Source: a virus. Taken from it: a DNA stretch of 64,000 nucleotides. The notes under the pieces were generated by a model. It made no database searches and was not told the DNA's origin. It worked only from the letters and a program-made list of their open reading frames with translations. The DNA lies in the UHGV virus genome UHGV-1558314; one strand, written 5' to 3'. Shown here one piece after another: positions 4,301 through 57,700 of this stretch (within the stretch, counting starts at the first letter, position 1; the number at the start of each line of letters is the position of its first letter). The translations under genes and the position numbers were made by a program.

Positions 4301-7300
4301 TTAGAACAGAGCAATGATGTTGTCAACAAACATAAAGCACTTTTGCAGCAATTCAGCTGTCGGCGTCATCTCATATGCTTTGCCATCATACATAAATCGC
4401 ACAGTGACAATGGGTGACACTTCGTCTTTGAATGCAAGCACAGGAACATCTACACCTGCAGTCAATTGCACTTCAACATCCTTGTCAGCTGCTACATCTT
4501 TAGCAATCACTGCAATATCTTGACAACGACCAGCAGCTACTGCATATCTAACGTTTGTCAATGTAGCAGACATGTCAGCAAGAGCTTGCATGATTTGCTG
4601 TTGAGTAAATTGCTCAACCGACTTCTTTGCAGCCTTGACAGCTTCGATATCTTGCGTATTTGCAAGAATCAATGCTACCACTGCAGGGTCAGAAGTAGTC
4701 CACCAACGACCATCAATTGCAAGCCACAGTCGATTGCCATTGACGTCAATTGCATATGCATATTGAGTGTTTGGCGCCAATGTGACTTTTCGAGTGTTCT
4801 TTAAGAACTCTGCTGCATCAGGTGCTGCAACAATGTTCTTGACAAATGACGGCAGCATTTCAGCTTCAAATGTTTGTGTAGCTTCAAAGACACCGCCACG
4901 TGCATCGTCATCAATTCTGCCTGCAAAGCGTTTGCAGATTTGAATGATTGTAGCCATGCCTACTGTTGGAACGACTTGACGTTTCATTGCAGGCATTTGC
5001 AGAGGCATTGTATCTTGCGCAATGTACAATGATGTCGCATCAACAGTGTCAAGTACTCGTGCAATGTCTGCAGTATCAACAATTACAAACCAGTCGCCAT
5101 CATGGCAGACAATGAGTTGCTTGCTGTCATTTGCATATGTCAGCAATACTGCAATGTCATTTTTGATTGAGATTGCAGGAATCCATGCTTGTTGCAGAGG
5201 TAAGTCAAGATTTGGTGTGCCGCATGGATAAAGCGCAGATGGCTGCATAATTGAGCGGCAATCAAAACCTATTGAACTTACAAGCTGCAGAACTTCGCCA
5301 CGAATGCAAGCATTACTTTGATTCTGTGTCATGTCATATGCAAGCCAACTGCAAATTGCTTTGATTGATGACACTGGAAATGCTACGCCAATTGTGCTGT
5401 ATGCAATCTTGCCGTCTGCTGACAATGACTCATCAACTGCAATGCCAGCATCATTGAACAATGACATATCAATTGAACAATGGAATTCGCCACCAGGCAT
5501 TGGACCTGCAGCAATGCCATAGCCATGACCAAGTGACAGCCATTCTTTCATTGCATCTGAATTGTATGACGAGAACTTGTACAGCACATATGACTTATGC
5601 GGGTCACTAACTGACTTGCGAATCTCCATCTTGGCGCCTGCTTTCTTTGCAATTGCTTTAATGTTATCGGCATGCTTTTTTGCCTCAGACTTGTCAAATT
5701 TGCCTTCATCAAGTTGAGCAATCTTGCCAAGCGCATAAGCAGTCCATGCAATTAACAATTGATTCAGTGCACCAACTTCTGACCACGACTTTTCTGCAAA
5801 CCATGAGCCAAGACCAGATTTGTCAAGGGTTTCTTTGCGTTCAGCTTTTGTTGTGCTGTCCCACCACTTGCCAGTCGCAGGCAATACAATGTCTTTGATT
5901 TGCTCCTTACGAAGCTCATTGACACCAATTTTGCCCTCATGAACATGCGCATTTGCATGATATGCTCTAAGAGCAGCCAACGCAGCATCATATGAGTCAT
6001 AGTCTTGCGGCCAGAATTCCCCATTCTTGCCAATGATGCCCCATACACCCTTTGACTTTTCTTGGATGACAGAGTCTTTGTCACCGGCAGCTTCATTGAC
6101 AAATGCCGTGTTAAGATATGCAATGACATGCTGAAGCTCTTTGTCGTCTGCAGACTCATTGACGTTCTTAGCGTAATCACCAAGAATTGATTCAACTTTG
6201 CCACGCAAATTGCTTGGCATATCATCAAGGTCAAGATTGCCGTACTTCGTAACTTCTGGTTGAGACAATCCAAGCAATTTCAACACCTTATCGCGGTACT
6301 TATTTGCAAGCTTCTTCCAAATCCAGCGGAATGTTACAGCGCCAATCAAGAATTTGATGAGGCCCTCATCAAGTACATGTTGTTCACGCAAATATGCTGT
6401 AATGCATGAACGTTGACCATCAGTCAAGTCAACCCACATTTTATCAAGCAATATTGAATCTGGGTTGCTTGCAATGCCAGCGCCGCTGCGGTTGTACACA
6501 TTCATTCTGTCAATTGCTGGTGTTGCGTCATTGTCCCACCAAGCTTGTGCATATGAACATCCAGCAGGATTTGAGATTGCTTCATTAATGTACATGACAT
6601 TGAAGATTTCGCAAAGACGCTTGCGACATTCAGGTGACATAACTTGCCATTGTGTTGCAATTTTGTCTTCTGACCACTGCAACAGCATGTCTGCAAATTC
6701 TTTACCTGCGCATTGCTCAACTGCACCATGTTTCGAACGCCAATAATTGTCAGGCTCAATTTGTGCAATTGCATGAACAAATGAAGTCAGATTGTATGAC
6801 GCAGATTCGCAAATGCAATGCTGTTCAATGTAGCTACGAACAGCAAGTGCAGTGTCTTCCGGCAAGTTGCTATATGGTGACTCATAGATGTTTGCTTGCT
6901 GATTGAGCATATGTGGAGCAACTTCTGCAATGATTTGTTTGCGAACATTCAATGGCCATGCATTCCATGAAGATTCTACAGATTCATCAAGATGCATGCC
7001 AATTGCATCCATAACTGCATCAGCATCTTTGCCCGACAGTTCGTCAAACAATTTGTCTACTACTGCATAATCATATCGCAAATTTGGCTGAGCCTTTGCA
7101 AGAGCGTCCATCATTGCTTTGCGTTCTTGTTTTGACGCATTATTCCATGTGCCAGCATACAATTCTGCTGTCGCGCTTTCACAGACAATATCTGCAGCAG
7201 CATATGCTTGCTTCATAATGTCCATGAAGATTGACTTCATTTTTGGATGCATCACATGATACTTTTCATTGTAGATGTCAAGTACGCCATAAACATCTTT

Positions 7301-7507
7301 CAATGGTCGAATGCTTTCTGATGAGCCGAATGATGGCTTCAAAATTGAATTGCATACACGTTCAACGGTGCCACGCATAAACTTGACATCACTTCGCTTG
7401 TCACTGATAGACATAAATGCATCAATGACAGACTTGATGTTGTCATCTGCAGCTTCATTGACAAAGCCTACTGGTCGACCGCCAAACTTGTTTGTTTGTG
7501 TTGTCAT
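4301..7507 (-). CDS. Large hypothetical protein (1068 aa) with FVNE motifs; possibly a protease-processed virion protein
   Basis: Long ORF, ATG start MTTQTNKF; contains RPVGFVNEAADD near N-terminus and TAFVNEAAGD internally; no catalytic motif recognised. Confidence 0.8.
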   Translation of the reverse strand: MTTQTNKFGGRPVGFVNEAADDNIKSVIDAFMSISDKRSDVKFMRGTVERVCNSILKPSFGSSESIRPLKDVYGVLDIYNEKYHVMHPKMKSIFMDIMKQAYAAADIVCESATAELYAGTWNNASKQERKAMMDALAKAQPNLRYDYAVVDKLFDELSGKDADAVMDAIGMHLDESVESSWNAWPLNVRKQIIAEVAPHMLNQQANIYESPYSNLPEDTALAVRSYIEQHCICESASYNLTSFVHAIAQIEPDNYWRSKHGAVEQCAGKEFADMLLQWSEDKIATQWQVMSPECRKRLCEIFNVMYINEAISNPAGCSYAQAWWDNDATPAIDRMNVYNRSGAGIASNPDSILLDKMWVDLTDGQRSCITAYLREQHVLDEGLIKFLIGAVTFRWIWKKLANKYRDKVLKLLGLSQPEVTKYGNLDLDDMPSNLRGKVESILGDYAKNVNESADDKELQHVIAYLNTAFVNEAAGDKDSVIQEKSKGVWGIIGKNGEFWPQDYDSYDAALAALRAYHANAHVHEGKIGVNELRKEQIKDIVLPATGKWWDSTTKAERKETLDKSGLGSWFAEKSWSEVGALNQLLIAWTAYALGKIAQLDEGKFDKSEAKKHADNIKAIAKKAGAKMEIRKSVSDPHKSYVLYKFSSYNSDAMKEWLSLGHGYGIAAGPMPGGEFHCSIDMSLFNDAGIAVDESLSADGKIAYSTIGVAFPVSSIKAICSWLAYDMTQNQSNACIRGEVLQLVSSIGFDCRSIMQPSALYPCGTPNLDLPLQQAWIPAISIKNDIAVLLTYANDSKQLIVCHDGDWFVIVDTADIARVLDTVDATSLYIAQDTMPLQMPAMKRQVVPTVGMATIIQICKRFAGRIDDDARGGVFEATQTFEAEMLPSFVKNIVAAPDAAEFLKNTRKVTLAPNTQYAYAIDVNGNRLWLAIDGRWWTTSDPAVVALILANTQDIEAVKAAKKSVEQFTQQQIMQALADMSATLTNVRYAVAAGRCQDIAVIAKDVAADKDVEVQLTAGVDVPVLAFKDEVSPIVTVRFMYDGKAYEMTPTAELLQKCFMFVDNIIALF

Positions 7508-7567
7508 ATATCAACTATTTTGATTGTCAATCAATTGATTTGTTTGTTATATGTATGCAACAATGCA

Positions 7568-7601
7568 AAATGAACCTGCAAATTTCTTCGCAGGTTCATT
7601 T
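7568..7601 (-). terminator. Hairpin terminator downstream of RNR gene
   Basis: aaatgaacctgc / gcaggttcattt 12-bp stem, 10-nt loop. Confidence 0.6.
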
Positions 7602-7619
7602 TGAGTGTGTCATGCAACA

Positions 7620-10600
7620 TCAATTGCATGCTGAATGTCCGCAGTTGGTGCATCGAACACAGCCGTCAAACTTGACCATGTCACCACCGCATTCAGGGCA
7701 CTTTGCATACATTTTTGAGCCATCTTGAATATGCAGTTTCAATGCACGACCAATTGCTTTGCAGAATGTTCCGACAGATGCAAAGCTTTTTGCAGTTTGG
7801 TCGACAATTTCGCCAAGGTCAATACCATTGCGAAGCATCGTTGAGTATAGTCGAGTAATTGTTTGTTGCTCATCTGAACCAAGACGTTCTGATATATTGT
7901 CATAGTGCTGCAAGAATGACAAATTGTCACCAAGCTTGTAGTGCTTCTTATCAGTCTTTGTGATTGTCGTTTGTTCAATGCCTTGCAACTTGTCGAATTC
8001 ATCTTTGTCAAGTTCAAATGCAAAGATTTCATAAGGTCGACCGTCATCACAGCCTACAAGAATACACCACTTGCGCTTATACACTGACACGCAATACACT
8101 GCAGCAGGCAATACTGGTTTTCGTTTTGAGCGATGACCAGATTGCAAGATGTGCGACTTGTCTTTTGACTGCTTGTCATCTTTTACGAGAACACCTGCAC
8201 GTGAGCCGTCTCGATAAATTGTGCAGCCCTTGCAGCCAGATTTCCATGCAGTCATATAAATTTCACGAACGAGTTCTTTTGTTGCAGAGTTTGGAATGTT
8301 GACCGTTACAGAAATTGACGAGTCAATGTATTTTTGCAATGCACCTTGCAGTTTCACCTTGCCAATCCAGTCAACATCTTCAGTAGTTGCCTTGTAGTAT
8401 GGTGATTGAACAAGCAACTCATCAATGACTGCTTGTGGAGCATTTGATAGCCAAGCTTTGATACGAGACATTTCTGCTTCTGACCATTCAATGCCAGTAT
8501 CTTTGACAAGAGTAAATTTGCCATCGCCAAGCTGCAATCGTTTACAAATCCACTGCATCAATGGGTAGTGAACTACAGCATATTCAATGAACTTGTCACC
8601 AGTAGTCTCATCAATGAAGTTGATGTCAGCTTCATTATCAACTGCAGTAGGCTTGCGACGACGTTTATGCAGCGGCATAAAGACAGGTTCAATGCCAGAC
8701 GTTGTCTGAGTCATCAAAGCTGTAGTGCCTGTTGGCGCAATTGTGGTCGTGTTAATGTTTCGACGGCCAAATTGCTGATAAGTTTTGATATGCTCATCAT
8801 CAATCGGTTCAGATAGCATACGCTGTACGAACTTTGACTGCACATCTGTGTCATAGTCGAATATTGCAAATGCGCCACGAATCTTTGCTAAGTCAATCGA
8901 TGCTTCATAAGTAGCCTTTACAAGCCATTGTTGCATAGTGACTGCGAAGTCAATTGACTCTTGTGAACCATAGCGCAAGCCAAGCATTGCCATTGCATCG
9001 CCAAGTGCAAGGAAGCCCATGCCATATCTACGAGTATTTGTCAATTTGTCATAGACTTTGTGCCACAAGTCAAGTTCAGTCTTTTTGATGTCAAAGTCTT
9101 CTTTGTCTGACTGTACCTTTGCAATGATTCGTTGCACTGCTTCAATTTCAAGCTGTACAAGGTCATCCATGATGACTGCACAATCATACGTGTCTTTATA
9201 GAATGTCTCAAAGTCAAATGACGCATCAGCAGTCCAAGGATTAAGCACGTATGCAGTCAAATTGCGATGTGACAAAATGCAGCTTGCATATGCTGCAAGA
9301 GGTTGTTCACCACAATTTAATGTATTGACTACTTGCTTGTCATTGACTGCAATAAAGAAATTGTGGAAGTCTTCTACTGTACCATTGTACACATCTGCTT
9401 TGTTCATGTGACGTGTTGCAACGACTTTGACAATTGTATCACCAGTAGTGTCAATGTCTGCATATTTGCTGCAGCCACCTAATGCTGCACAAGCTTCACA
9501 GCAATATGACTGTTCACGATTGTCATAAGAGATTTCGAATTCTTTACCACAGCACTCGCATTGTTTGATAACTGTATTTCGTTCTGTTTTTACAAGCTCA
9601 TCAGTCTTCAATGCAATTGATAGCTTATCTGCGCTTGGCATATCAATTGCCCACAACGTGTCATTTGTCGCAAGGTCAATTGCATACTTGAAATCACCAT
9701 TAGCAAGTCTGAACTCATGATTTGCTGTGCAATTGATGACATGACCATCATCAAGCACAATCTGAATGATTTGTGCATTGTGTGCAGTCAATCTTGGTCG
9801 ACGCATTGTACGCACAACAAGCTTGCCATTAGCGTCAAGACAATACACTGGAATGTCTTCGCCGTTATCAGCAAGCTCTTTGAATGTCTTCAAGCCTGAG
9901 CCATCAGCAACAAGCACTTTTGTGTCACCAGTGAAGCATGGATTTGTTGAGCGCTCTTCATACATTTTGCCGTATGCTTTCGAGTTCGACTCTTCCATAA
10001 TGCGGTCCCAAAAGAATACACCAGGTTCTGCAGATGCCCATACATTATCAACAATTTTGTCAAACAATGCTTTTGCATCTGATGTCTTATGCAGCTCTTG
10101 ACCATTAGAGCCACGCCAAACATGCTCAAACTGTTGTTCTGCAAGCACTGCACGCATAAATGCATCAGTAAGCTTGATGGAAATGTTTGCGCATGTGATT
10201 TTCGTCAAGTCCTTTTTTGCATCAATGAACTTATCTGCATCAGGATGCTCAATTGACAATGACAACATCAATGCGCCACGCCTGCCATTTTGTGCAACTT
10301 CTTTTGTCGATGTTGAAAAACGTTCCATAAATGACACTACACCAGACGTCGTAACAGCACTGTTATGCACTTCTACGCCTTCTGGACGAATATGTGACAA
10401 ATCATGGCCGACACCACCACGACGTTTCATCAACTGAACTTGTTCTTCATCTATTTTGAAGATGCCGCCATATGAGTCTGCATCATTGCCTATTACATAG
10501 CAATTTGACATTGATGTGTAACCGCCAAGACCAATACCAGCCATTGGAGAACCACCAAGTACAAATCGCTTAAATGGCTCAAGCAAATATGCAAGTCGCT

Positions 10601-10841
10601 CTTTTGACAATACACGTTTGCCTGTCTGTTCTTCAAATTGTGATTCTATACGGTCAAATTCATTGACCCAGCGTTCATGCATATCAGACAATGAGTGTTC
10701 ATACAGATTGTCTTTGTCATGATGCAAGTATTTTGACATGCATATGTCAGCAGCCATTGAGTCGCCTGTAAATTCATGTGTCAGTGTAGTGTGCACTTCA
10801 GCATATTCAGGCGACCCAATTTGAATAGGACGTTTTGTCAT
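7620..10841 (-). CDS. nrdJ: Class II (adenosylcobalamin-type) ribonucleotide reductase with mini-intein and C-terminal zinc ribbon
   Basis: Motif STNP-[insert]-CGEQPL reconstitutes the NPCGEQ active-site loop; C-terminal CPECGG...CVRCTNCGH; ORF-track start at 10901 is TTG inside the promoter, true ATG (MTKRPIQ) at 10839-10841. Confidence 0.9.
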   Translation of the reverse strand: MTKRPIQIGSPEYAEVHTTLTHEFTGDSMAADICMSKYLHHDKDNLYEHSLSDMHERWVNEFDRIESQFEEQTGKRVLSKERLAYLLEPFKRFVLGGSPMAGIGLGGYTSMSNCYVIGNDADSYGGIFKIDEEQVQLMKRRGGVGHDLSHIRPEGVEVHNSAVTTSGVVSFMERFSTSTKEVAQNGRRGALMLSLSIEHPDADKFIDAKKDLTKITCANISIKLTDAFMRAVLAEQQFEHVWRGSNGQELHKTSDAKALFDKIVDNVWASAEPGVFFWDRIMEESNSKAYGKMYEERSTNPCFTGDTKVLVADGSGLKTFKELADNGEDIPVYCLDANGKLVVRTMRRPRLTAHNAQIIQIVLDDGHVINCTANHEFRLANGDFKYAIDLATNDTLWAIDMPSADKLSIALKTDELVKTERNTVIKQCECCGKEFEISYDNREQSYCCEACAALGGCSKYADIDTTGDTIVKVVATRHMNKADVYNGTVEDFHNFFIAVNDKQVVNTLNCGEQPLAAYASCILSHRNLTAYVLNPWTADASFDFETFYKDTYDCAVIMDDLVQLEIEAVQRIIAKVQSDKEDFDIKKTELDLWHKVYDKLTNTRRYGMGFLALGDAMAMLGLRYGSQESIDFAVTMQQWLVKATYEASIDLAKIRGAFAIFDYDTDVQSKFVQRMLSEPIDDEHIKTYQQFGRRNINTTTIAPTGTTALMTQTTSGIEPVFMPLHKRRRKPTAVDNEADINFIDETTGDKFIEYAVVHYPLMQWICKRLQLGDGKFTLVKDTGIEWSEAEMSRIKAWLSNAPQAVIDELLVQSPYYKATTEDVDWIGKVKLQGALQKYIDSSISVTVNIPNSATKELVREIYMTAWKSGCKGCTIYRDGSRAGVLVKDDKQSKDKSHILQSGHRSKRKPVLPAAVYCVSVYKRKWCILVGCDDGRPYEIFAFELDKDEFDKLQGIEQTTITKTDKKHYKLGDNLSFLQHYDNISERLGSDEQQTITRLYSTMLRNGIDLGEIVDQTAKSFASVGTFCKAIGRALKLHIQDGSKMYAKCPECGGDMVKFDGCVRCTNCGHSACN
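9315..9938 (-). other. Mini-intein (about 208 aa) inserted at the RNR catalytic cysteine
   Basis: Starts CFTGDTKVL, block F-like VYNGTVEDFHNFFIAVN, ends ...VVNTLN followed by +1 Cys; Cys-rich insert KQCECCGKEFEISYDNREQSYCCEAC; no LAGLIDADG domain seen. Confidence 0.7.
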
Positions 10842-10882
10842 TGTAACAGTGCATTTAAGTGTTTTAACAGTTTTATGTATAA

Positions 10883-10911
10883 ATTGTACAACAATGGGCA
10901 AAATTTTGCAT
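10883..10911 (-). promoter_or_regulatory. Sigma70-like promoter (ATGCAA-N17-TACAAT) for RNR
   Basis: Plus attgtacaac at 10883-10892, ttgcat at 10906-10911. Confidence 0.5.
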
Positions 10912-21269: not shown

Positions 21270-23222
21270 CTACTCTGCTTTTGTTGCTTGCATCAGTTCA
21301 GCAAAGCTTACAGTGTAAGCATCTTCACCAACAGTCACATATGCTGCATCAACATTGGAGTCATTGCCTGTGTATGTAACCAAGGTGCCTGCAGGAATTT
21401 CTACACCGTCAATTGTTCGCATCGAATTGACAAGCTTATATGTCTTGTTGTCTTCGAAGTTCTCATTGACATATGCGGCAGCAATCATTGTTGAACGCTT
21501 ACGAGATGCAGACTCATTGACAAAGCTTGCGCCAACAAGTTCTGACAGCTTCTTCTTTGTTGCTGCAGAACACTTGTCATATGCAATGTCAATTGCAAGG
21601 TCTACATCGCCAAGTTCCTTTGCAATGAGTTCATCAATCTGAGACAGCTTCTTGTCATCTTTGACAGCGACAAAATTCATTGCAAACTTGCGAGCGTTGT
21701 CTGACAATGATTCATCAATGTTCCACTGTTTCATCAATGTCTGCTTCAGTACCTTGTCAAGTTCCGACCAGTCCTTATCTGCAAGAGTAGTTGCATCAAA
21801 GTCTTCATTGCTGAACTGCTTCAGCACTTTGACTTTGTCATCATGTGACAATGCTGACCACTTGTTTGCAGCGTCTTCAGCAGATTCAAGCAGAGGCTTG
21901 ATTGCATCTTTGAGTTCTTGCGGCCAAGTTTCAGGCGCTTTGAGCAGCATCTCAGATGAGTTGTACTTAAGCATGTCGGTCATGATTGCAAGCTTAACAT
22001 TGTTAGCTTTCTCCTCAGGTGACAGAGCTTTGAACTTTTCAGCCCAGTCTTCAGATTCAGTCACGATTGATACTGGCTTTGCAAAACCAGCGACAAAGAC
22101 AAGCTTATACATGATGTTCGTCATGAATGAACAAACTGCATCAATATCAGACTGAGTTGCTGCAGATTGAGCATCACGAATGTTAAGCAATGCTTGACGA
22201 AGAGACATAATGCCTACAACAGGGTCAGACCATGTCAATACAACTGAACTATCGATTGTGATGCCCTTGTCAAATCGCATATTTTCTGCAATGCGGTCAG
22301 CAAGTTCAGGCAGTTCAGTGTAGTACTGCTCAAGTGCTGCATGTGTAGCAGGAATAGAAACTTTTGCAGCATCAAATGGGTTATTGATGTGCATAACATG
22401 TGCAGTTTGAATTGACTGCATCAGCATCGACACTACTGCAGATTCTATTGCAACATCATCTGCAGCAGCTTCATCAAGATTTGCAATTTTTAGCAATGCC
22501 TTTTTGTCTGCATCTGACAATCGCAGCCAAATGTATTCCCATTGACTGTTTGCATCATAGCCACGGTCAGTAGCAAACTTGGTGAGTTCTGCAGATTTCT
22601 TTGCTGCGTCATCGTCATCAAGCCAATCCAAGAATGCTTTCAGTTTGTCGTCAAATGCTTCATTGACAAATGACGCCATCGCATTTTGCAACAAATATTG
22701 ATGGTCTCGTACTGGTGACTCAACAATTTCAAAGCCTTCAAGAGACTTTGGCGAGTCAGTTGCTGAACCAGCTTCAAGACACTTCTTTGATGCATTGTCA
22801 ATGACAAACCACATCTTTTGTGCTTTGAGTGCAATGTAAGTCTTGTCTTTTGATTGCTGAACAGTCATGTTGTCAAGAGCCAATGCACTGATTGGCAAAT
22901 TCTTGACTGCTGACTTGTCAAGTGCTTCATTGACTGCTACATTGTCATCACTCATTAACTGAGTATTTGCAGCAAATGTTGCAGAATCAATGCTAAGCTC
23001 TTTGCCATCGGGCATAGCGAACTTAACTGCATCTGCAACATCAAGCACTTGCACCATGGTGCCTGCTTCGACTTTGTCGTCACCAACAGCGAACTCAGTT
23101 ACAACCTGATATGCTTTGTTAGCTTCAACAGTCTCAACAGACTCCATAATGAACTTTGCTGTGCTGCAAGAGATTTTGTGCTTTTTCATGTTCATGTATG
23201 AATTTGAGTGTTTGTTGTTCAT
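21270..23222 (-). CDS. Acidic 650-aa protein with several xVNE sites; candidate scaffold/internal head protein
   Basis: ASFVNEAFDD, ASFVNESASR, AAYVNENFED, VAVNEALDK. Confidence 0.75.
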   Translation of the reverse strand: MNNKHSNSYMNMKKHKISCSTAKFIMESVETVEANKAYQVVTEFAVGDDKVEAGTMVQVLDVADAVKFAMPDGKELSIDSATFAANTQLMSDDNVAVNEALDKSAVKNLPISALALDNMTVQQSKDKTYIALKAQKMWFVIDNASKKCLEAGSATDSPKSLEGFEIVESPVRDHQYLLQNAMASFVNEAFDDKLKAFLDWLDDDDAAKKSAELTKFATDRGYDANSQWEYIWLRLSDADKKALLKIANLDEAAADDVAIESAVVSMLMQSIQTAHVMHINNPFDAAKVSIPATHAALEQYYTELPELADRIAENMRFDKGITIDSSVVLTWSDPVVGIMSLRQALLNIRDAQSAATQSDIDAVCSFMTNIMYKLVFVAGFAKPVSIVTESEDWAEKFKALSPEEKANNVKLAIMTDMLKYNSSEMLLKAPETWPQELKDAIKPLLESAEDAANKWSALSHDDKVKVLKQFSNEDFDATTLADKDWSELDKVLKQTLMKQWNIDESLSDNARKFAMNFVAVKDDKKLSQIDELIAKELGDVDLAIDIAYDKCSAATKKKLSELVGASFVNESASRKRSTMIAAAYVNENFEDNKTYKLVNSMRTIDGVEIPAGTLVTYTGNDSNVDAAYVTVGEDAYTVSFAELMQATKAE

Positions 23223-23474: not shown

Positions 23475-24494
23475 CTATTGCTTATGCCAGCCATATGATG
23501 CCTGACCAGCATCATACACTTCTACAAAACCATGGTCGTACATAAAATCTTCATTACGAGTGCCCTTGCCCCCATTAGTACCAAGAATACGGTCTGCACC
23601 ATGCATAAGCAGCATATTATTTGTGATATGTTGCTTTGTCAGCATATTGAACCAATGTTTGCTATATGACAAGCCAAGACCATCAAAGCCCAGCTTTGTG
23701 TACACGCCACCATCAAACTTGCTCAAATCACAATACGACAACACAGATTCAGGGTCATATGTCTTGATAAAGTGCTTGAATATGCGTTCGGCGCCACCTA
23801 CGACTTTTGTTGCTGCACAAAGACGCAGTAGTTCATACTGATATCGCTTATTGTATCGTGGACGACCAAATGTCATAAGCTGATGTATGACATAGCCGCC
23901 AAGCAATTCAAGTGGATGGCCTTCAATCAACGCAAGATTGATAAAATTGCCTGAGCACTTGCCTTGCAAATGATGTTCAATCAAAAATTGATTTGCAGTA
24001 TACTTGTCAATTTCAACAACTTTAAGCTTGCGAGCATATACAATCTTTGATTTGTCTACGATTTGATGCTTGATGTGATTGATAACTTTCTTGGCGTCAT
24101 CCCAATCCCACACATGAATGCAATGAAAGCCTGCAGCTTTTGCAATGTCTGTTTTCTTTGCATGAATATCACAAGGCAAATGCGAATCTTTTGCAGCATG
24201 CATAAATAGATGCTCAAATGAATGCGTGCTATTATGTGAAAATGTGGGATTGATGTTGATGACGATGTTGTCATGTCTAAAATCGAAGACTTCATCACCA
24301 ATAACAAAGTTGCGCTCAAAATCTATACCGACATGTTTGAGTAATACTTGATGCCACACATCTTTATAGGCTGATTCAAGATTGCTTAGCTCATCACAGT
24401 TTGCAATATTTTTGTAACGTTGAATAGCAGCATCAAAGTCAAGATTGACTTCAGCGTAGTCTGCATTTTTATCGTAGTGAAATTTTGAGCTCAT
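23475..24494 (-). CDS. Homing-endonuclease-like protein, family paralog 1 (Vsr/DUF559-like nuclease motif)
   Basis: IVININPTFSHNSTHSF ... GFHCIHVWDWDD and C-terminal VEVYDAGQ shared with paralogs; ATG at 24492-24494. Confidence 0.75.
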   Translation of the reverse strand: MSSKFHYDKNADYAEVNLDFDAAIQRYKNIANCDELSNLESAYKDVWHQVLLKHVGIDFERNFVIGDEVFDFRHDNIVININPTFSHNSTHSFEHLFMHAAKDSHLPCDIHAKKTDIAKAAGFHCIHVWDWDDAKKVINHIKHQIVDKSKIVYARKLKVVEIDKYTANQFLIEHHLQGKCSGNFINLALIEGHPLELLGGYVIHQLMTFGRPRYNKRYQYELLRLCAATKVVGGAERIFKHFIKTYDPESVLSYCDLSKFDGGVYTKLGFDGLGLSYSKHWFNMLTKQHITNNMLLMHGADRILGTNGGKGTRNEDFMYDHGFVEVYDAGQASYGWHKQ

Positions 24495-24515
24495 GTGTAT
24501 AATTTGTATGAGATT

Positions 24516-24544
24516 ATTGTACAACATGCAAATGCATGTTGCAT
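24516..24544 (-). promoter_or_regulatory. Sigma70-like promoter (ATGCAA-N17-TACAAT)
   Basis: Plus attgtacaac at 24516-24525, ttgcat at 24539-24544. Confidence 0.5.
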
Positions 24545-24598
24545 TTGATGCAAAGTACTGCGTACACAACATAAAGTACAAGTTTGCTTTTGACAGAC

Positions 24599-25621
24599 TT
24601 ACTTTGTATTGCTACGCGTCATTGTTAAATGACCGCAATCATACACATCAACTTCTGTTTTGCCAAGCATGCATGTATGACAATTTATTTTGAAATCTAC
24701 TGCAGTGTAGTCAGGATAGTTTAGCGGAGATTCTTTTGACAAATCAATTTCAATTGTGTCAGTAGTTTTAAGTTGTTCAGTGCCTGCAATGATATCTGCA
24801 ATGAGATTGATAACATCTTCTTGTGAATCCCAGTCAAACACAGTTATGCAACGATAGCCTGCATCAAGCGCAAGTTTTGTTTTGTTGTAATGGTATTGCG
24901 CATCAAGTGGCTCATTTTTGTCAGACAATTTTGTTGCATATCGAAACCCAAGCGTGCTGTTATGCGATACGGTAGGATTGATTTCTACAAGCAATTTATG
25001 TGTGCCATCAATATCATATGACAAATCATATGAATAACGTTGAATTCTAACTGCGTCAAGCTGCATGTCAATGTGTAAATGACGCAATATTATTGCATGC
25101 CAATGCTTGTTGATGCCCGATATTATATTTGCAGCTTCCATGCATTTTGGATGCATTACAAAATACGGCACGCCAAAGCGTTCTTGTATTGTTTTGTATG
25201 CTTTTGCATTAGAATCTTTACCATAAATGCTGCCATAACGCTTAAGCTTTGTAGCAATCAACTTGTCTATGTCACCCATAGCATTGCCAAAGCGCTCAAT
25301 CTTATGCTGTTTAATGGCATCTTTGTCGCCAAACATATGACCATATCGAGACATCTTTGTTGCTTTGACTGCATTGATGTTGCAACCTGCACCATATCGA
25401 GCATGCATAGTTTGCATGCGTTTAGCAATGTGCTCTTGTGATTGCTTAATTTGTTCGGTGCCAAATTTGCGCAAATTATTGATACGCTTAGTAACATCTT
25501 GTTTAATGACTGAATGCGTGGTTGTTCGCTTGCCAAGTCTTACACATTCTGTAGTTTTGAGCAATGTATCTCGTTCAAACTCAATTTGTGCAATTCGTGC
25601 AACAATTTCTTTAGATGTCAT
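24599..25621 (-). CDS. Homing-endonuclease-like protein, paralog 2 (tandem K/R-Y/F-G repeats + Vsr-like nuclease motif)
   Basis: Repeats ...MSRYGHMFGD...IERFGNAMGD...LKRYGSIYGKD...; LLVEINPTVSHNSTLGF ... GYRCITVFDWD ... VDVYDCGH; ATG at 25619-25621. Confidence 0.75.
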   Translation of the reverse strand: MTSKEIVARIAQIEFERDTLLKTTECVRLGKRTTTHSVIKQDVTKRINNLRKFGTEQIKQSQEHIAKRMQTMHARYGAGCNINAVKATKMSRYGHMFGDKDAIKQHKIERFGNAMGDIDKLIATKLKRYGSIYGKDSNAKAYKTIQERFGVPYFVMHPKCMEAANIISGINKHWHAIILRHLHIDMQLDAVRIQRYSYDLSYDIDGTHKLLVEINPTVSHNSTLGFRYATKLSDKNEPLDAQYHYNKTKLALDAGYRCITVFDWDSQEDVINLIADIIAGTEQLKTTDTIEIDLSKESPLNYPDYTAVDFKINCHTCMLGKTEVDVYDCGHLTMTRSNTK

Positions 25622-25640
25622 TTTTAATAGCATATTGATA

Positions 25641-25670
25641 ATTATACAACATACAAATGAGTTTTGCATT
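25641..25670 (-). promoter_or_regulatory. Sigma70-like promoter (-10 TATAAT variant)
   Basis: Plus attatacaac at 25641-25650, ttgcat at 25665-25670. Confidence 0.4.
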
Positions 25671-25700
25671 TTTGATGTAGCAATTGCTTGCACAGTTTGC

Positions 25701-25737
25701 AAAAAAGAACCGCTTGCAATCTAATTGCAAGCGGTTC
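25701..25737 (-). terminator. Rho-independent terminator (14-bp stem + U tract on minus strand)
   Basis: aaaaaa gaaccgcttgcaat cta attgcaagcggttc. Confidence 0.7.
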
Positions 25738-25966: not shown

Positions 25967-27682
25967 TCAAATCCAGCCGTAGTCGCTGTGGATAGCGAAG
26001 GTGAGGTAAGCCAACTCGGGATACATACCCGTCTCCGCGAGAGCGTAATCCGACTCAATCAGCAACTTTGGCGCTGCTGTTCCTTCGGCTGTTAATTCCA
26101 CACTTGATGCAAGGTCATATGGCATGAATACACATCCCTGGTTGACATTCTCTACGTCAACACCGTCAGCAGTCTTGTTCGTACGAAGAACGAGAACAGT
26201 GTTGTCGTTCAGCGGCTGCTTAGGATTGCAATAGATTTTAATGCCAGCAAGGTCACCTGCGTAATACAGGTTTTTGTTGTCCTGTACCAGCGTATTGTCA
26301 AGAGCTGCAACAAAGTTTTTCTGAGCCTTAATTGCAACCAAGGCAATCGTATTGACCACAGCAGCATCACCAGCACCGAAACGCGACAGGTTGCCAATGA
26401 TTGCCGAAGCAGCCAGGATACGCGTTGCGATACGAGCCTGACGGGTAATCTGGTTCTCAGCCGAGCTGTTCGATTCAGCGTTCGGAACCATGCCGAATTC
26501 AGCCGTACGGTCTACACCCATCTTGTCGACAAATGCAGGAGCTTGGAATTCCGAGAATGCCTTGGCAGTCGAACCAGCGTAGCCAATGTACAAGTTCAGG
26601 TTGTAGCCCTGAGCAGCCAACAGCTGAGCATGTGTCGTAACACCAAGTGCACGCATGCGCTTCAGACCATTGTCATTGATTGACTGCGTGATTTCATTCT
26701 GCATTGCATTCTTGATGATTGCAACTGCATCCAAACCGCGAGCACGGAGGTCCTTAACCTGGCGACGAGTCAGAGCGCCCCAAGTCTGGTACGTCTTAAC
26801 TTCGATAGCCTTTGAGAAGGTGCGGAGCTCCAGCATGTTCGGGTTGCCAGCCTCAGCCTCAGAACGAGACATTGGGTTGCCGTCAAGGTCATCCATTGCA
26901 GCGAAGCCGTGGATGTGTTCGTCACCAGCCGAAACCAGGTCGAACATAACCTCAGTCATACCAGTCAGCAAGTCAGTTACAGCACCTGCAGCGTCAACCG
27001 AGTAGATTTTCGATGCAGCCATTGCAACATCAGCCAACGACTTGTCAGGAGCAACAGTCATTGCGCCACCTGCGCCTACAGTGTACACGCCCTCATTGCG
27101 AACTACGAGGTAGCCTGCAACACGCGATACCTGTACAAACGTTACTTTGGCAGCAAGCTCACCAGCAGCTGAACCGCCGATGTACAGAACTTGACCCTTC
27201 TTGAGGCCACGAACCATTGTCTGCGAAGCAACATTGTACAGTTCCTTCCACTTGATGAGGAAGTAGCGAGGACCCTTGGCAACATTCAGCTTGCCGCCAC
27301 CATACACGTAGTCTACATAGTCCAGCTGAACCAGCGGGCTGTAAACAGGAATGGTCGGGAGCAGGTCGAACAGAATCGTGTTGGCTGCGATGTTCATGTT
27401 CAGAGCCAGAACATTGGCAGCTACATCGATTGAACCACGCTTACGCGACGGGTCATGGAACTGTGCTTGCGTGCCTGGGTCAGCAGGGAAAGCGACCGGA
27501 CCTACGCCATTGAGATTCTGCGAATACGTCGACTCAAACGACTCGTTCATATACTGAACGTTCTGAGCGATTGATGCGAGCAGATACTTCTTAGCGGGCG
27601 AGAGCTTGGAGTCAAACGACTCATCAAGAACAGGGCCCCACTTTTTCAGCAATGCATCAATCTGTGTACGTTTTGCGTTCAT
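25967..27682 (-). CDS. Putative major capsid protein (571 aa) with N-terminal propeptide cleavage motif
   Basis: Markedly GC-richer codon usage than neighbours; N-terminal ...NVQYMNE/SFEST matches the recurrent xNE motif; late-type promoter upstream; family assignment not verified. Confidence 0.7.
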   Translation of the reverse strand: MNAKRTQIDALLKKWGPVLDESFDSKLSPAKKYLLASIAQNVQYMNESFESTYSQNLNGVGPVAFPADPGTQAQFHDPSRKRGSIDVAANVLALNMNIAANTILFDLLPTIPVYSPLVQLDYVDYVYGGGKLNVAKGPRYFLIKWKELYNVASQTMVRGLKKGQVLYIGGSAAGELAAKVTFVQVSRVAGYLVVRNEGVYTVGAGGAMTVAPDKSLADVAMAASKIYSVDAAGAVTDLLTGMTEVMFDLVSAGDEHIHGFAAMDDLDGNPMSRSEAEAGNPNMLELRTFSKAIEVKTYQTWGALTRRQVKDLRARGLDAVAIIKNAMQNEITQSINDNGLKRMRALGVTTHAQLLAAQGYNLNLYIGYAGSTAKAFSEFQAPAFVDKMGVDRTAEFGMVPNAESNSSAENQITRQARIATRILAASAIIGNLSRFGAGDAAVVNTIALVAIKAQKNFVAALDNTLVQDNKNLYYAGDLAGIKIYCNPKQPLNDNTVLVLRTNKTADGVDVENVNQGCVFMPYDLASSVELTAEGTAAPKLLIESDYALAETGMYPELAYLTFAIHSDYGWI

Positions 27683-27770
27683 GATTGAATTTGTTTGTTA
27701 TTGAAAGTGAAACATATATTTCTGTATAATATGTATAGAACTACTGATATTGATTGAATTGTGAAAATGG

Positions 27771-29060
27771 TCATTTTTCAATCTTTTTGAGCAATGCATG
27801 ACCGCAATCATAGACTTCGACGAAGCCTGAAGCAATCAATGAGTCAACATCTATAGAAGACGTTCGTATAATATGTTCGTGTGTCTTGATATTGTATAGA
27901 TGACACTGAACCCATGTTTTGACGACTTCATAATTTGGATACAATCGAGGGTCTTCTTTTGACAAATCAAGTTCTATGACATCATCAGTTTTGAGCTGCT
28001 CAGTTTTGTTTATGACATCTCTAATGTGCAGCAACATATCATATCTACAATCCCAGTCAAATATTGTTATACATCGATAGCCATTGCGTGCTGCAACATC
28101 TGTTTTGAATTTGTGAGCATACGCAGGTTTGGCGTCATTATCAACAGAATGCCCAGTTATGTAACCAAAGCCCTTTGTTGCATTGTGTGTAACAGTTGGA
28201 TTGATTTCAATTACAACAGCATCTTTTCGCAAATCATATAACAAGTTCTCAATAGGATGCTCAGTAACAAAATCAAGATTGCAAGAATGTTTCAAATCCC
28301 ATTGCCACGACATATTGATGTTTGATGTCAACCTTGCAGATGCTTGCGGCAATTGCAATGCATGTTCTACACCATAGCGTTCACGTAATGTTGCATGAGC
28401 CCTTTGCATATTTTGCATTGCGGGACCCCAATGCTCAAATTTTGTAGCATTTATCTTTGCAATTTTGTCTGGTAGCTTATTTGTACTATCTACACCATAT
28501 TTAATAAGACAACTGATGCGAATATTGTATTGTCGTTTTATTCGAGAATGTGACGTAGCACATCTACTAAATCGTTCAAATGGTGTTGATGCAATCAATG
28601 CATCTCGTTCTGACTCAAGAGCTTTGACATGTTCAAGCACTTCTGCTGGTACATTATCATAGTCAATCACATATTGCTGACGTGGTTGCGTTACATGAGT
28701 TTTGCCGTGTGTCTTAAGCTTATTGATTTGTATGCTATACTTTCTGCGTATATGTGGATGTCTTGATGCATCAGATTGCGCAATTTCATGCTCTCGTTGC
28801 TCTTCAAGTTTAGCTATTTGCTCAACAATAGCTGGTTCAATGTCTGGTTTGTCTGATATGACTATGTTTTTAAGCTCATCAAGACGCTTGTTGAGATATT
28901 TGACACGTCTTGTATATGTTATCTTTGCAACTTGATGGTTTGTATGATGCTTGCCTACTTGCTGTTCTGGTTGATTCAGCGTGTCATCAAGGCGTTGCTT
29001 AGCGAGCTCAAATTCATTATCAAGCCATGCTTTATGCGCATCAAATTCATCTTGTGTCAT
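27771..29060 (-). CDS. Homing-endonuclease-like protein, paralog 3
   Basis: VVIEINPTVTHNATKGFGY ... GYRCITIFDWDCRYD ... VEVYDCGHALL. Confidence 0.75.
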   Translation of the reverse strand: MTQDEFDAHKAWLDNEFELAKQRLDDTLNQPEQQVGKHHTNHQVAKITYTRRVKYLNKRLDELKNIVISDKPDIEPAIVEQIAKLEEQREHEIAQSDASRHPHIRRKYSIQINKLKTHGKTHVTQPRQQYVIDYDNVPAEVLEHVKALESERDALIASTPFERFSRCATSHSRIKRQYNIRISCLIKYGVDSTNKLPDKIAKINATKFEHWGPAMQNMQRAHATLRERYGVEHALQLPQASARLTSNINMSWQWDLKHSCNLDFVTEHPIENLLYDLRKDAVVIEINPTVTHNATKGFGYITGHSVDNDAKPAYAHKFKTDVAARNGYRCITIFDWDCRYDMLLHIRDVINKTEQLKTDDVIELDLSKEDPRLYPNYEVVKTWVQCHLYNIKTHEHIIRTSSIDVDSLIASGFVEVYDCGHALLKKIEK

Positions 29061-29806: not shown

Positions 29807-30556
29807 TCATCGTACAGTGAATGACTTATCATCATCTTCTGTAGTAGTCGGGTCATCAATTACATCGTGGCCAATGCCTGACTCTGGTTCTGGTTCTGGT
29901 TCCGGTTCCGGTTCCGGTTCTGGTTCTGGTTCCGGTTCTGGTTCCGGTTCTGGTTCCGGTTCTGGTTCCGGTTCTGGTTCCGGTTCTGGTTCAGGTTCTG
30001 GTTCCGGTTCCGGTTCTGGTTCTGGTTCCGGTTCTGGTTCCGGCTTGGGCTCTGGCTTGGGCTCTGGCTTGGGCTTCGATGAATAATCAAACATCTTATG
30101 AATCCATTTGCACCACCATTTGCGACATACATGTGTGCCATCATGATAATACGCTTGCAGCTCCATTGGAATTGCATGATATGCTTTGTCATGTGACATA
30201 CCTTTGAATACTCGCAAGTACACATAGCACAAGCAATATGCAATGTAGTACATAAGCGGTGATGCAAGCAGCCACCACCAGCTAAGCACATTGCATGCTG
30301 CAAGCACAATAAGTACAAGCAACGTCGCAAGTGTTACGAAGATGAATTGCTTTGCATGCACAGCTTCATGCTTCAATGTCTCAGAATATCTACTAAGTGT
30401 GTCATCATATGACTTATCACTTCTTATGAAGCACATTGCACACAACGACATTGCATAATAATGTGAAAATGGAATGTATGGCTGGTCGATGACAAGCATT
30501 GGTCCAGCAAACCACAGTCGCCACTGAGATTTCTTTGGCAGTGTTGCAGTTTTCAT
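29807..30556 (-). CDS. HExxH-motif membrane protein with C-terminal (KPEP)/(PE)n repeat tract
   Basis: [10 protein letters not shown] followed by hydrophobic helices; C-terminal about 60-aa PE repeat encoded by the hexanucleotide SSR. Confidence 0.7.
29884..30074. repeat. Hexanucleotide microsatellite (GGTTCY)n about 30 units plus (GGCTTGGGCTCT)n
   Basis: Direct reading of ggttctggttccggttcc...; encodes (PE)n on minus strand. Confidence 0.9.
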
Positions 30557-33457: not shown

Positions 33458-33560
33458 GTTCGTTATCGTATTTGTAAATTGTGAAATGTTGCTTTGTTTG
33501 ATTATAACTTGATATATGTATGTATATGATGACATCAAACATGTTGTTGACCAAAATCAA

Positions 33561-33611: not shown

Positions 33612-36600
33612 TTAGCCACGAATCAAGTCAACCAAGCGTTGCTGTTCAGGAGTCAATGACGACTTTCCACTGCCATCAACGTTTTCGTTAACGAAACCGA
33701 CTGGCTGCTTAGTCGAATATGACTTGATTGCAGCCCAGTTACGTGAACGATAGAATGCTGCGACATCTGACTCATTTACGAAAGTGCGAACTGCTGCCTG
33801 AGTAGCAATCAATGACTTCTGTTCAGGAGTCAAGCTTTCATAAATGTACTTGTATGCTGTTGGCATGTGCTTCAGATACAATGGCGTATGGTCAATTGGC
33901 TGCAGATTCTCATCCAAGACTGCCACACCTGCAGCATCATAGCGAGTTGCAAGCTGCTTTGTTTGACGACGCAATGCAGCAATTTCATGCTTGATGTTTG
34001 TCAAGCATTCATCTGTTGCTTGCGCGCCAAGATATGTGCGAAGCATATCAGACAGCATCTTCTGATTTGCGTCAGTCAAATCACCTGCGACTTCGATGCC
34101 AGTCAGCTGGTCATCCTTACTGATGACTACAGAAATTGTAGAGCCATCACGCTCAACTGTGCGGAAGTCAAAGTCATCATATGACTTATCCTTAAGAACA
34201 GCTTCACGAATATTGTCATCTACGCCTTCATTGACCATGCTCATGCATTCCTCAACATCTACGTCAAGTCCAAGCTCTTCTGCAGTTTCAGCAATCTTTT
34301 CTGCAAGTTGAGCTTTGTTTTCAACTTTGTCGAGGTCTGCTGCATCTGATACAGCATCGACAAGTTCATCTGCCTGTGCACGAGTAATCGTTGAAGCATC
34401 AACAAGGCCATCAATGATTTGCTCTACATCTGCAGGCGTCGGCTTATTGTCTTCTGTAGCTTCATTGATAAACTTAGCAGTCTTTGGCTTGTAGCTAAGC
34501 TTGCCCTCATTAACCATCTCATCCTGCAATTGTGCAGCGATGTATGCAATCAGCAATGACTTGTTGGCTTCAAGTTCATCGACTGCTTCAGCAGACTTTT
34601 GAGCTTTGATGAGTTCATCGTAAGCTGCTGCAACTTTGTCATCCATCGTAGACTTGTCAGGGTCAATGTTTTTGATGCATGTCTTGACAATGTCATCCTG
34701 ATAGAACTTGTCAATGATTGACTTGTCAGTGTCAGAGTACGTTGCATACAGCTTGTCAGCAACAATTGACTCATTGACAATCTTGCCAGGCTCAGATGCA
34801 GGAACAAGAGTCCACTTACCATCAACTTCTGCAACAATGCCTGATGTCGATTCACCATAAGTGACTGTCAGACGAGTACCAGCTTCATTGTTATCAATTG
34901 TGTTGACGACTGCTTCGAATTCATTGCCATCTGCATCATAGATTTTGATGTTGTCACCGACAGCAGCTTCATCTACTGGTGCTTCGAAGAACTCTTTGAC
35001 AAAGTTCTGAACATCAACGGGCAGACTGTCATATGGCTGTGATGCATAGTACTCTGAGTCAGCGTCAAGGTAGTTCTTTGACAGCAGCCAAGTTTTTCGA
35101 GCAGCAACATCTGCAGCATTCCAAGCATCGACTGACTCATCGCAGTCATCAACAAGTGCAAGATACTCAGGGTCTTTCTTGTCATCAAAACGAAGAGTAA
35201 ACTTTTGCTCGGGCTTGCCAGCAGGCCAAACTTCGACTTCAATTTTTGTAGTGCCTGCAACATTTTTGACTGCGCCTACAACAATCTTGTCGCCTTTGTT
35301 GATGCCATTAGACATGTCGTATGGTGCTTCAATAGATTCATCTGTCGACTGTGCTCGAATTGCAGCTGCAATAGCGTTACGAGATTCATTGTCAAACATC
35401 TCCCATGTAGCATTTGCAGCATCTTCTACGCCAATCTTGTCTTTGCCAATCTGCTCAATTAACTGATTGCGGTCAGCTACTGAAGCATTGTACCACCAGT
35501 CTGCTGCAGGGTCAGAAGCTTCATCAAGCGCTTTGACAGTTTCATATCGACCGTCATACAGCATGTACTTATCACCTTCTTTGATGGCTACAGACTCCTT
35601 GCCATTGTACTTGAATGACACTTTGTCTTCATTGAAGCCAGTCAATTCAGCTGTGATTTTGTCACCGTTCTTGTCATAAACTTCGACAGTTTGTGCTTCA
35701 TCAATGTTCAAGTGCTTCTTGAGTGCATCTACAAGTTCTTTGCCAAGTGCATCTTCATTGTCATGAGCATGTTGGAAGCAATCTTCATCTGACTTATCAG
35801 GCTGAACAGCTTTCAATGCTGTGGCACGATTGAGCATTGACATTGTGCCCCAGATTGATACGAAGCTTTTGCCCTCATTGTCTTGTGCTTTGGCTTCGTC
35901 AATTGCATCAATGTCTTTCTCAAGCATTGCATGATGAGCAATGTCGATGCCAGCCCATTTCGTCTTTGCATTATATGGCAAACCAATATGCTTCGACAAA
36001 ATTGACTGACGCTGGTCATCTGTGAATGAATCCCAAGCTTCGCCAAGTGTTGCATGCTTTGCTTCATCAGCAGCAAATTCAGCTTCAATCTTGAGTTTGT
36101 GGTCCTTGTCAATCAGTTGCCACTTGGCATTTGGACGATAAAACTCAGACAATGACAGCTTGTCAAGAATGACTTTGCGTTCGTCATCTGACAATTCGTC
36201 CCACTTGTTGTCAGCAGATTCATCGATGTTGACGAGTTCTTTCTCAATGAGATTCTTGTCAAGCATTGCATCAATGATTGGCTGCTGGGCTTCTGCTGGA
36301 ATGTCTTTGAACGACTTAATTGCAATGACAGCGTCTTTGTCATCAACTTTAGCAGCTTCAACAATTTCTGTCTTCACTTCATCAGTCAAAGCGCCCCAAG
36401 CAGCATCGAGATAATCAAAGTTGAGAGCTTCATCACATTCAACAATGCCATACTGCTTTGCAATGTCATTGTGCTTGTCAAGATTGCTGTCGAGTTCAGC
36501 TTCAATTGCTGCTTTGATGTCATCAATTGACTTATCTTCAACTTCAAACTCAAGAGCTTTTGCAAATTCAGTCAATGCTGCATCATCAAGCTTGCTAATG

Positions 36601-48233: not shown

Positions 48234-48249
48234 TAAAATTCCTATATAA

Positions 48250-48360
48250 ATTGTACAACATGCAAAATGTTTTTGCACCATTTTGATACAACATGCATTG
48301 CATATTTGCAATGATGCAAAGTACGATGTACACAACATGCATTGCATATTTGCAATCATA
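48250..48360 (-). repeat. Three tandem promoter-like repeat units (about 35-40 bp each)
   Basis: attgtacaacatgcaaaatgtttttgcacc / gatacaacatgcattgcatatttgcaatg / gtacacaacatgcattgcatatttgcaatc. Confidence 0.55.
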
Positions 48361-57689: not shown

Positions 57690-57700
57690 ATTATTATCTT

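Follow-up and report, generated by a model that had tools for sequence, protein, structure and literature searches.

The subject of this analysis is a gene at positions 4301..7507, on the minus strand, of a viral DNA of 64,000 nucleotides (UHGV virus genome UHGV-1558314; "the window" below means this whole stretch). We consider it likely that its product of 1068 amino acids (aa), called here the target, is a polyprotein which is packaged in the head and processed by the prohead protease of a jumbo myovirus resembling phages PAU, PTm1 and MA9V. This reading, drawn from sequence comparison, relies on a short motif, often in the form FVNE, which is concentrated in a few proteins of the window, on a protease of the T4 gp21 type encoded in the same window, and on the conserved positions of the motif in homologues of the target.

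Distribution of the motif in the window

The motif is present far beyond chance. We counted it in the products of 75 non-overlapping open reading frames (ORFs), which amount to 20,366 aa. The tetrapeptide FVNE occurs eight times where 0.16 occurrences are expected (Poisson p = 1e-11) and is the third most enriched tetrapeptide, after PEPE and EPEP of a low-complexity tract; the tripeptide VNE occurs 22 times for 4.05 expected. The eight copies of FVNE belong to the target (two), to a protein of 650 aa (two), to the extreme C-terminus of the prohead protease (two), to the product of ORF 48438..49727 (one) and to one further protein (one), and the heptapeptide PVGFVNE is common to the leader of the target and to the protease C-terminus. 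The wider motif [LIVM][NDM]E[SAGN] is found 38 times for 10.5 expected, and 29 of these 38 sites lie in three proteins: 14 in an extension of the protease, eight in the target and seven in the 650-aa protein. Shuffled at its own composition, the target holds 0.59 sites on average and none of 5000 shuffles reaches the eight sites observed; for the protease and for the 650-aa protein as well, none of 5000 such shuffles reaches the observed count. The proteins outside these three (17,332 aa) are at background, with 10 sites for 8.1 expected, and permuted control motifs show no enrichment.

Two further sites are found in the major capsid protein, at aa 21 (VLDE, then S) and at aa 47 (YMNE, then S). 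This protein has two sites in aa 1-60, where 0.04 are expected, and none in aa 61-571. We take the two as reference substrates, from which the motif is defined. Both are conserved in position: the first reads VLDE/S in the window (the slash marks the predicted cut), FINE/A in MA9V-1, KLNE/S in PAU and QITE/S in PTm1, while the second reads YMNE/S, LNE/S, LME/N and INE/S respectively. The protease gp21 of phage T4 cuts after L/I-X-E: it trims the N-terminus of the capsid protein, fragments the core proteins, cuts itself, and removes the capsid-targeting sequences of 10 aa which open the internal proteins (PMC9026906). We read the motif as a protease recognition site because the window reproduces this pattern of gp21 substrates. 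Three features expected of such a substrate were found for the target: the window encodes an S77-like protease and a gp23-type capsid protein, and the sites of the target are enriched, absent from its C-terminal domain and conserved in position.

The capsid protein and the prohead protease

The major capsid protein (25967..27682, minus strand) belongs to the gp23 family (Pfam Gp23, 4e-11). It is 33-37% identical to the capsid proteins of the jumbo phages MA9V-1/2 of Chryseobacterium, PAU of Sphingomonas and PTm1 of Tenacibaculum, the values for MA9V and PAU being 36-37%, and it is related more distantly to those of huge metagenomic phages. By this protein comparison, MA9V-1/2, PAU and PTm1 are the closest cultured relatives of the window; no relative at the nucleotide level was found in the phage collection.

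We predict that the target is cut by an enzyme encoded at 33612..37562 (minus strand). This protein of 1316 aa matches phrog_207 (7e-34) and, just below the cut-off, Pfam Peptidase_S77 (26.9 bits for a cut-off of 27 bits). Its T4-gp21/S77-like domain covers aa ~10-243 and is followed by an acidic, scaffold-like extension of ~1070 aa, which has seven W-x2-L-[ST]-x3-[KR] repeats; the 14 motif sites of the protein include FVNE at 1264 and at 1293. The corresponding protease of MA9V-1, MA9V1_151, has 1347 aa and 21 such sites. The PTm1 orthologue ORF300 (564 aa) is annotated as "prohead core scaffolding protein and protease", and PAU has a separate protease gp151, a scaffold gp152 and an "internal capsid protein" gp154. 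Because of this annotation and of these separate genes, the extension is best read as a fused scaffold, and the window protein is probably a protease-scaffold fusion. In PAU (L008, 4237..5821), the three adjacent genes for gp152 (scaffolding), gp153 and gp154 all start with MKT[LI]xxLYE, then A, that is, with a T4-like capsid-targeting leader, from which it appears that the PAU lineage uses targeting by a leader followed by cleavage.

Predicted sites and modules of the target

The ORF list and the translation give the target gene 3207 nucleotides (nt), which is 1068 codons and a stop codon, and its product a computed mass of 118 kDa and an isoelectric point (pI) of 5.2. An earlier note on this DNA had reported an ORF of 1068 aa here, with an FVNE site near the N-terminus and a position directly downstream of the ribonucleotide reductase (RNR) gene. 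The ORF exists, on the minus strand (a plus-strand reading of 4301..7507 was rejected, the frame being full of stop codons), the site is there, and the position is correct on that strand, because the RNR ORF 7620..10901 lies upstream of the target on the same strand, at a distance of 112 nt.

The N-terminus of the target is MTTQTNKFGGRPVGFVNEAADDNIK. The protein opens with MTTQTNKFGGRPVGFVNE, then AADD, so that FVNE stands at aa 15-18 (nt 7454..7465) within GFVNE/AADD (aa 14-22). A second copy, which the earlier note did not mention, stands in AFVNE/AAGD at aa 468-476 (FVNE at aa 469-472, nt 6092..6103). Sites are predicted after aa 18, 175, 309, 381, 451, 472, 601 and 693, and looser candidates are GVNE/L at 531 and IVCE/S at 111; we predict from them that the target is cut not once but at up to 8-10 sites.

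These sites would divide the target into the following parts, all on the minus strand. The predicted leader or propeptide MTTQTNKFGGRPVGFVNE (7454..7507; 18 aa, 2 kDa) ends at the first FVNE site and may be analogous to a capsid-targeting sequence. The pro-region, aa 19-693 (5429..7453), is acidic and, in structure prediction at low confidence, helical, and it holds 7-8 sites where shuffles give 0.5-0.6. Within it, the predicted fragments are three acidic pieces covering aa 19-381; a basic module of 70 aa, aa 382-451 (6155..6364; 8 kDa, pI 9.5, net charge +4), bounded by VLDE/G and NVNE/S, where conservation within the pro-region is highest; an acidic piece of 21 aa, aa 452-472 (pI 4.5); a mini-domain of 59 aa, aa 473-531 (5915..6091; 6.4 kDa), between the second FVNE and GVNE, which contains VIQEKSKGVWGIIGKNGEFWPQDYDSYDAALAALRAYHAN; and two near-neutral pieces covering aa 532-693 (pI 6.5 and 8.0). 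The core of the mini-domain, KPNGKWGI...AYHAN, spans ~50 aa (aa 478-526 of the target) and has no Pfam match. The C-terminal domain (C-domain), aa 694-1068 (4304..5428; 375 aa, 40.9 kDa, pI 4.7), starts after VDE/SLSADGK (aa 693/694) and has no internal motif site. It is predicted to be the mature product retained in the head.

The pro-region also carries repeats of the form W-x2-h-[ST]-x3-[KR]-x2-[IL] (h, a hydrophobic residue). The protease extension has seven copies of the same repeats and the 650-aa protein has three, and with a hidden Markov model (HMM) of the repeat built from the protease copies, the top nine non-self matches were all members of the target family or the 650-aa protein.

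Conservation in homologues

A word-indexed protein search returned a sole match, a 98%-identical copy of the target on a metagenome contig of 87.7 kb; another copy, 97% identical, lies on an IMG/VR contig of 174.6 kb. An exhaustive HMMER search returned 15 more distant proteins, which show the target to be modular, and a scan of IMG/VR added a homologue of 902 aa on L005. The leader, the sites flanking the modules and the start of the C-domain are conserved at 22-42% identity.

In all eight homologues the leader has an h-x-E site followed by [SAG], at 18-27 residues from the initial methionine. Its start is M..N[KR]FG[GA] in seven of the eight (the eighth, that of L005, reads NKTFNA), so that the leader pattern of the family is M..N[KR]FGG.P.. 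with an end in F-V-[NM]-E, then [SA]. Over aa ~358-522 of the target, phmmer finds P0004-P0008 to be 36-42% identical to it. The basic module is preceded by a site (h-D-E) in 8/8 homologues and followed by one (V-[ND]-E) in 7/8, and an h-x-E site comes after AYH in five of the six family members compared, also in P0003, the sixth member, P0007, reading TDE/S. The mini-domain is found in other architectures in P0010-P0016, and P0010 fuses it to DUF5856. Among these carriers, P0010, P0014 and P0016, which are metagenomic and come from another phage group, display many K.FS[ED] repeats (KTFSE/G, KHFSD, KNFSD), which a different prohead protease may have as its cleavage motif.

The C-domain starts exactly after a site in 7/7 homologues. 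In the fused forms this start reads VDE/SLSADGK (target), IDE/ALSEDGK (P0002), VNE/SLSEDGS (P0003) and FVNE/SLSNDGK (L005). In the cultured Chryseobacterium phage MA9V-1 and in the metagenomic proteins P0009 and P0017, the C-domain is a separate gene preceded by nothing more than a leader of 7-8 aa of the type M..YINE: MSNYINE/AMSLNGK in MA9V1_180, MSKNYINE/ALSTDGK in P0009 and MQHYINE/ALSQNGK in P0017. The alignment of MA9V1_180 (gp180, 433 aa) with the C-domain of the target has a probability of 99.9% in hhalign. Directly upstream of it, gp179 of MA9V-1 (889 aa) has 17 broad h-x-E matches, most of them h-N-E. Because the C-domain stands alone behind 7-8 aa in these three cases, the target has the look of two parts fused together: a scaffold-like pro-region and a cargo domain which elsewhere travels behind a minimal leader, in the architecture known from the internal proteins of T4.

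One could suppose instead that the target is a purely morphogenetic scaffold or core protein, which builds or sizes the prohead and is then cut up, all its pieces including the C-domain leaving or staying idle and nothing being delivered. The density of sites and the W-repeats resemble those of the scaffold-like extension of the protease, and the core proteins gp22, gp67 and gp68 of T4 are also cut into multiple fragments (PMC9026906). We nevertheless judge this explanation unlikely: the C-domain is free of sites, is compact and of alpha/beta type in its model and exists as a stand-alone gene behind its short leader, which is the pattern of packaged internal proteins, and P0004 and P0007 have the same leader and modules as the target with different C-terminal regions, which suggests an interchangeable cargo.

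Searches for known families and folds

The target has no significant match in Pfam, PHROGs, NCBIfam or the sequences of the PDB, and the statement of the earlier note that no catalytic motif is recognisable stands. A tblastn search of the target in 50,697 phage records gave no match at E <= 1e-5, and tblastn in these records gave no match other than MA9V. A match to Cas9_a (16.5 bits, below the cut-off) was dismissed as noise. As far as the databases and the literature searched show, the protein family, its leader and its lineage-specific motif are undescribed.

Structure prediction, which had been proposed as a check, gave a model of the C-domain and no fold match. From an alignment of six sequences, AlphaFold2 (AF2) predicts a mixed alpha/beta C-domain, which appears as three alpha/beta sub-domains (predicted local distance difference test score, pLDDT, 70.6; predicted template modelling score, pTM, 0.41). 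Three fold searches with this model gave no convincing match, the template modelling (TM) scores being at most 0.19 with Foldseek against BFVD and at most 0.13 with Foldseek against the PDB. The AF2 prediction for the full-length target from its single sequence was rejected as unusable (pLDDT 37.8); the low-confidence helices of the pro-region come from it.

Other candidate processed proteins

The 650-aa protein (21270..23222, minus strand), with its seven sites and two copies of FVNE, is probably a further head protein that is packaged and processed. It contains a DUF5856/phrog_858 domain at aa ~262-374, judged by eye to be Dps/ferritin-like, and the protein may be associated with DNA in the head.

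The product of ORF 48438..49727 (minus strand), of 429 aa and with no family match, is on its sequence a candidate processed head protein. Its leader reads TFGGANFVNE, then SLAQ, with FGGANFVNE at aa 22-30 and a cut predicted after aa 30. The gene adjoins that of a protein with a Head_fiber_dimeric domain (49735..51345, minus strand).

This neighbourhood is what could be said in favour of a third kind of head protein, one which belongs to the outside of the head, for instance as decoration or in association with head fibres, and which the protease trims from a precursor: phages of the PTm1 type have head fibres, the window encodes the head-fibre-domain protein, and the gene next to it carries an FGG..FVNE leader like that of the target. 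That the target itself is of this kind seems very improbable to us. Repeats of fibre, Ig-like or collagen-like type are absent from it, several cuts within the chain are what internal proteins typically undergo, and the prohead protease of T4 acts inside the prohead on substrates associated with the core (PMC9026906).

Genomic context and points against a packaged head protein

Upstream of the target, ORF 7620..10901 (minus strand) encodes the large subunit of RNR with an intein (Pfam Ribonuc_red_lgC, 1.5e-74; Intein_splicing; phrog_84, 1e-92). The Intein_splicing match lies at aa ~338-517, and there is a weak match to a TSCPD domain at the C-terminus. In the spacer from the stop codon of RNR to the start codon of the target, a terminator-like perfect hairpin of 13 bp (7567..7602, minus strand), with arms AAAATGAACCTGC and GCAGGTTCATTTT, has a free energy of -27.9 kcal/mol in RNAfold. 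The consensus terminator scan did not call this hairpin because its loop exceeds 8 nt. Since it parts the target from RNR, the target is probably transcribed as a unit of its own. Long perfect hairpins containing G and C and followed by runs of T are found between many minus-strand genes of the window and resemble a regular series of intrinsic terminators; besides 7567..7602, examples lie upstream of 7620..10901, 27771..29060, 29807..30556, 30620..33538 and 47733..48359.

The exact 13-mer ATAACAAACAAAT occurs twice only in the window, at 7538..7550 and at 27689..27701, both on the minus strand, that is, 31-43 nt upstream of the ATG of the target and 7-19 nt upstream of the ATG of the capsid gene, and ATACATAT precedes both copies. 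The two genes may share it as a late promoter or as an element of the leader; we give it little weight because it was found post hoc, with a post-hoc chance estimated at ~0.1. In the window, TATACATATWA-like elements are not confined to the head genes, and a sigma-70 scan was at background.

Downstream, the order target, protein of 277 aa, and further on gyrB is kept in L003 (which has the 98% copy), in L001 (which has the 33%-identical homologue P0002) and in L005, and the conserved neighbour of 277/278 aa was borne out for L001 and L003. The 278-aa neighbour of P0009 in L002 was rejected as the same protein: it is unrelated and homologous to MA9V1_182 instead. In MA9V-1, the gp179/gp180 pair comes after GlmU-like and KpsF-like genes, both of which are also upstream in the window.

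As far as context goes, it is this position that speaks most against a structural role, since a gene between RNR and a block containing gyrB lies outside the head module. It agrees with the idea that the target is a non-virion early or middle protein of nucleotide or DNA metabolism, in which the h-N-E-S motifs are linkers or serve another purpose. We hold this to be quite improbable. The motif marks the N-terminal region of the capsid protein at conserved positions and the C-terminus of the protease itself, while in the proteins recognised as serving replication or metabolism its frequency is that of the background, and the hairpin parts the target from RNR. Moreover, the genes of head proteins are commonly scattered in jumbo phages.

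Several other points also weigh against the reading of the target as a packaged and processed polyprotein. With only 3-4 residues the motif is short, and the exact specificity given for it is inferred, not measured. The likeness of the W-repeats is only suggestive, since its E-values are weak (~0.1; 0.09 for the target), and the pro-region has no sequence similarity to MA9V1_179 (E = 0.46). The C-domain model is of moderate confidence and has no known fold, so that it gives no pointer to the role of the mature product. Finally, the literature searched gave no proteomic or N-terminal sequence data for this lineage, the study of MA9V-1 having used only sodium dodecyl sulfate polyacrylamide gel electrophoresis (PMC10537231).

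Other features of the window

The window has a GC content of 41% and belongs to a large myovirus. Almost all of its genes are on the minus strand. A tail sheath (30620..33538), a portal (39112..40908) and a DNA end protector like gp2 form, with the protease and the capsid protein, a head module of the T4 type. For the family-B DNA polymerase there are two ORFs, one for the exonuclease and one for the polymerase (51370..52662 and 56184..57725, both minus); ~3.5 kb lie between the two and hold a homing-endonuclease-like gene. Possible homing-endonuclease-like paralogues lie among the core genes at 23475..24581, 24599..25702, 27771..29060, 46480..46728, 46786..47736 and 54976..56175 (all minus). 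Repeated RYG motifs are found in 24599..25702, 46786..47736 and 54976..56175, and a shared terminal YDCGH motif in 24599..25702, 27771..29060, 46480..46728 and 54976..56175; of the six, 23475..24581 (strongly) and 46786..47736 (weakly) match phrog_3339/559. The protein of 249 aa encoded at 29807..30556 (minus strand) has possible N-terminal membrane segments and weak, sub-threshold Pfam matches only, and the most enriched tetrapeptides of the window come from its (PE)n tract at aa 172-225.

Proposed mechanism and significance

For the head-packaged polyprotein which we favour, we propose the following course of events. The precursor would co-assemble into the prohead core by means of its leader (NKFGG...FVNE), of its scaffold-like pro-region, or of both. 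The T4-gp21-type protease encoded at 33612..37562 would then cut it after the Glu of [LIVM]-[ND]-E when [SAG] follows: after aa 18 and 472 (both FVNE), probably after 381, 451, 531 and 693, and possibly after 175, 309 and 601. In this way the leader would be removed and the pro-region, which ends at aa 693, would be diced into the basic 70-aa peptide, the 59-aa mini-domain and several acidic fragments. The C-domain, of 375 aa and 41 kDa, would be released and would stay in the DNA-filled head, from which it may be ejected into the host; ejection or the formation of an inner body is plausible by analogy with known phages. What we infer in this scheme is that the protein is cleaved, that it is located in the head, that the leader has a targeting role, what becomes of the fragments, and that ejection takes place.

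The earlier note had predicted the removal of a short N-terminal propeptide. Removal by a head protease is well supported indirectly, by the S77-type protease and the gp23 capsid protein, by the concentration of the motif in few proteins and by the conserved leader site of the homologues; the single trim gives way to a polyprotein predicted to be cut many times. The same note had taken the size of the protein to suggest an injected effector or an inner-body protein. This argument falls because the large size mainly reflects the scaffold-like pro-region: the conserved mature product would be the C-domain of 375 aa and not a protein of ~1050 aa.

A more ambitious statement can be made from the same material. 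An undescribed cargo-delivery family would exist in PAU/PTm1/MA9V-like jumbo phages, probably of Bacteroidota, in which a lineage-specific leader (NKFGG...F-V-N/M-E) and site-delimited modules (the W-repeats, the basic 70-aa peptide and the KPNGKWGI...AYHAN mini-domain) load an interchangeable C-terminal cargo, and the C-domain of 375 aa would have a new fold, leave the head with the ejected DNA and act on the host. Taken as a whole this statement is doubtful, and we put it forward tentatively.

If our reading is true, the specificity of the prohead protease in a poorly studied lineage of jumbo phages is L/I/V/M-N/D-E followed by S/A, often in the form F/Y-V-N-E; in the literature searched, we found no report of processing sites for PAU, PTm1, MA9V or their relatives. 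A sequence rule would then spot head-packaged proteins from the genome alone, and in the window at least three proteins answer to it in addition to the capsid protein. The leader would also be a candidate for loading foreign proteins into such capsids, as has been done with the T4 capsid-targeting sequence. Because the mechanism is the textbook biology of T4 and phiKZ, from which it is already known, the result extends existing knowledge and does not overturn it.

Comparison with known systems

[quoted passage not shown] Like the target family, the T4 internal proteins place diverse, site-free cargo behind similar leaders, and the 7-8-aa leaders of MA9V1_180, P0009 and P0017 are much like the 10-aa capsid-targeting sequence of T4 (PMC9026906). 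The sequences differ: the T4 leader is of the type MKTYQEFIAE, to which the 18-aa leader of the target, MTTQTNKFGGRPVGFVNE (NKFGG...FVNE), has no sequence similarity. No PHROG or Pfam match links the target to the family of T4 internal proteins and capsid-targeting sequences, and the leaders of PAU gp152-154 are T4-like whereas that of the target is not. The motif of the target is also distinct from that of T4 in its Asn/Asp at P2 and, often, its Phe/Tyr at P4, and its cargo stands behind a multi-site pro-region ending at aa 693 where that of T4 stands behind 10 aa.

The proteases of the phiKZ type cut after S/A-X-E, and the propeptides of their substrates have redundant sites (PMC9026906). 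Many head proteins of phiKZ-type jumbo phages are packaged with the DNA, and some of them are ejected (PMC9026906; PMC10052503). The inner-body and ejection proteins of phiKZ, 201phi2-1 and SPN3US, which are processed by gp175/gp245, have long propeptides with several redundant sites after Glu, as is predicted for the target. Their motif S/A-X-E is to be set against L/I/V/M-N/D-E here, where P3 is not S/A, and the target phage is of the gp23/PAU-PTm1 lineage and not phiKZ-like; for the paralogue families of the phiKZ gp93/95/97 type, no PHROG match and no homology to the target were detected.

The core proteins gp22, gp67 and gp68 of T4, and gp152 and gp154 of PAU, are acidic, helical and cut into multiple fragments, as the pro-region of the target is predicted to be, with no sequence similarity to it; the target is ~4x larger than these T4 and PAU proteins and ends in a conserved globular domain. 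Closest to it are gp179 and gp180 of MA9V-1, both unannotated, which mirror the two parts of the target and are encoded there by two genes where the window has one.

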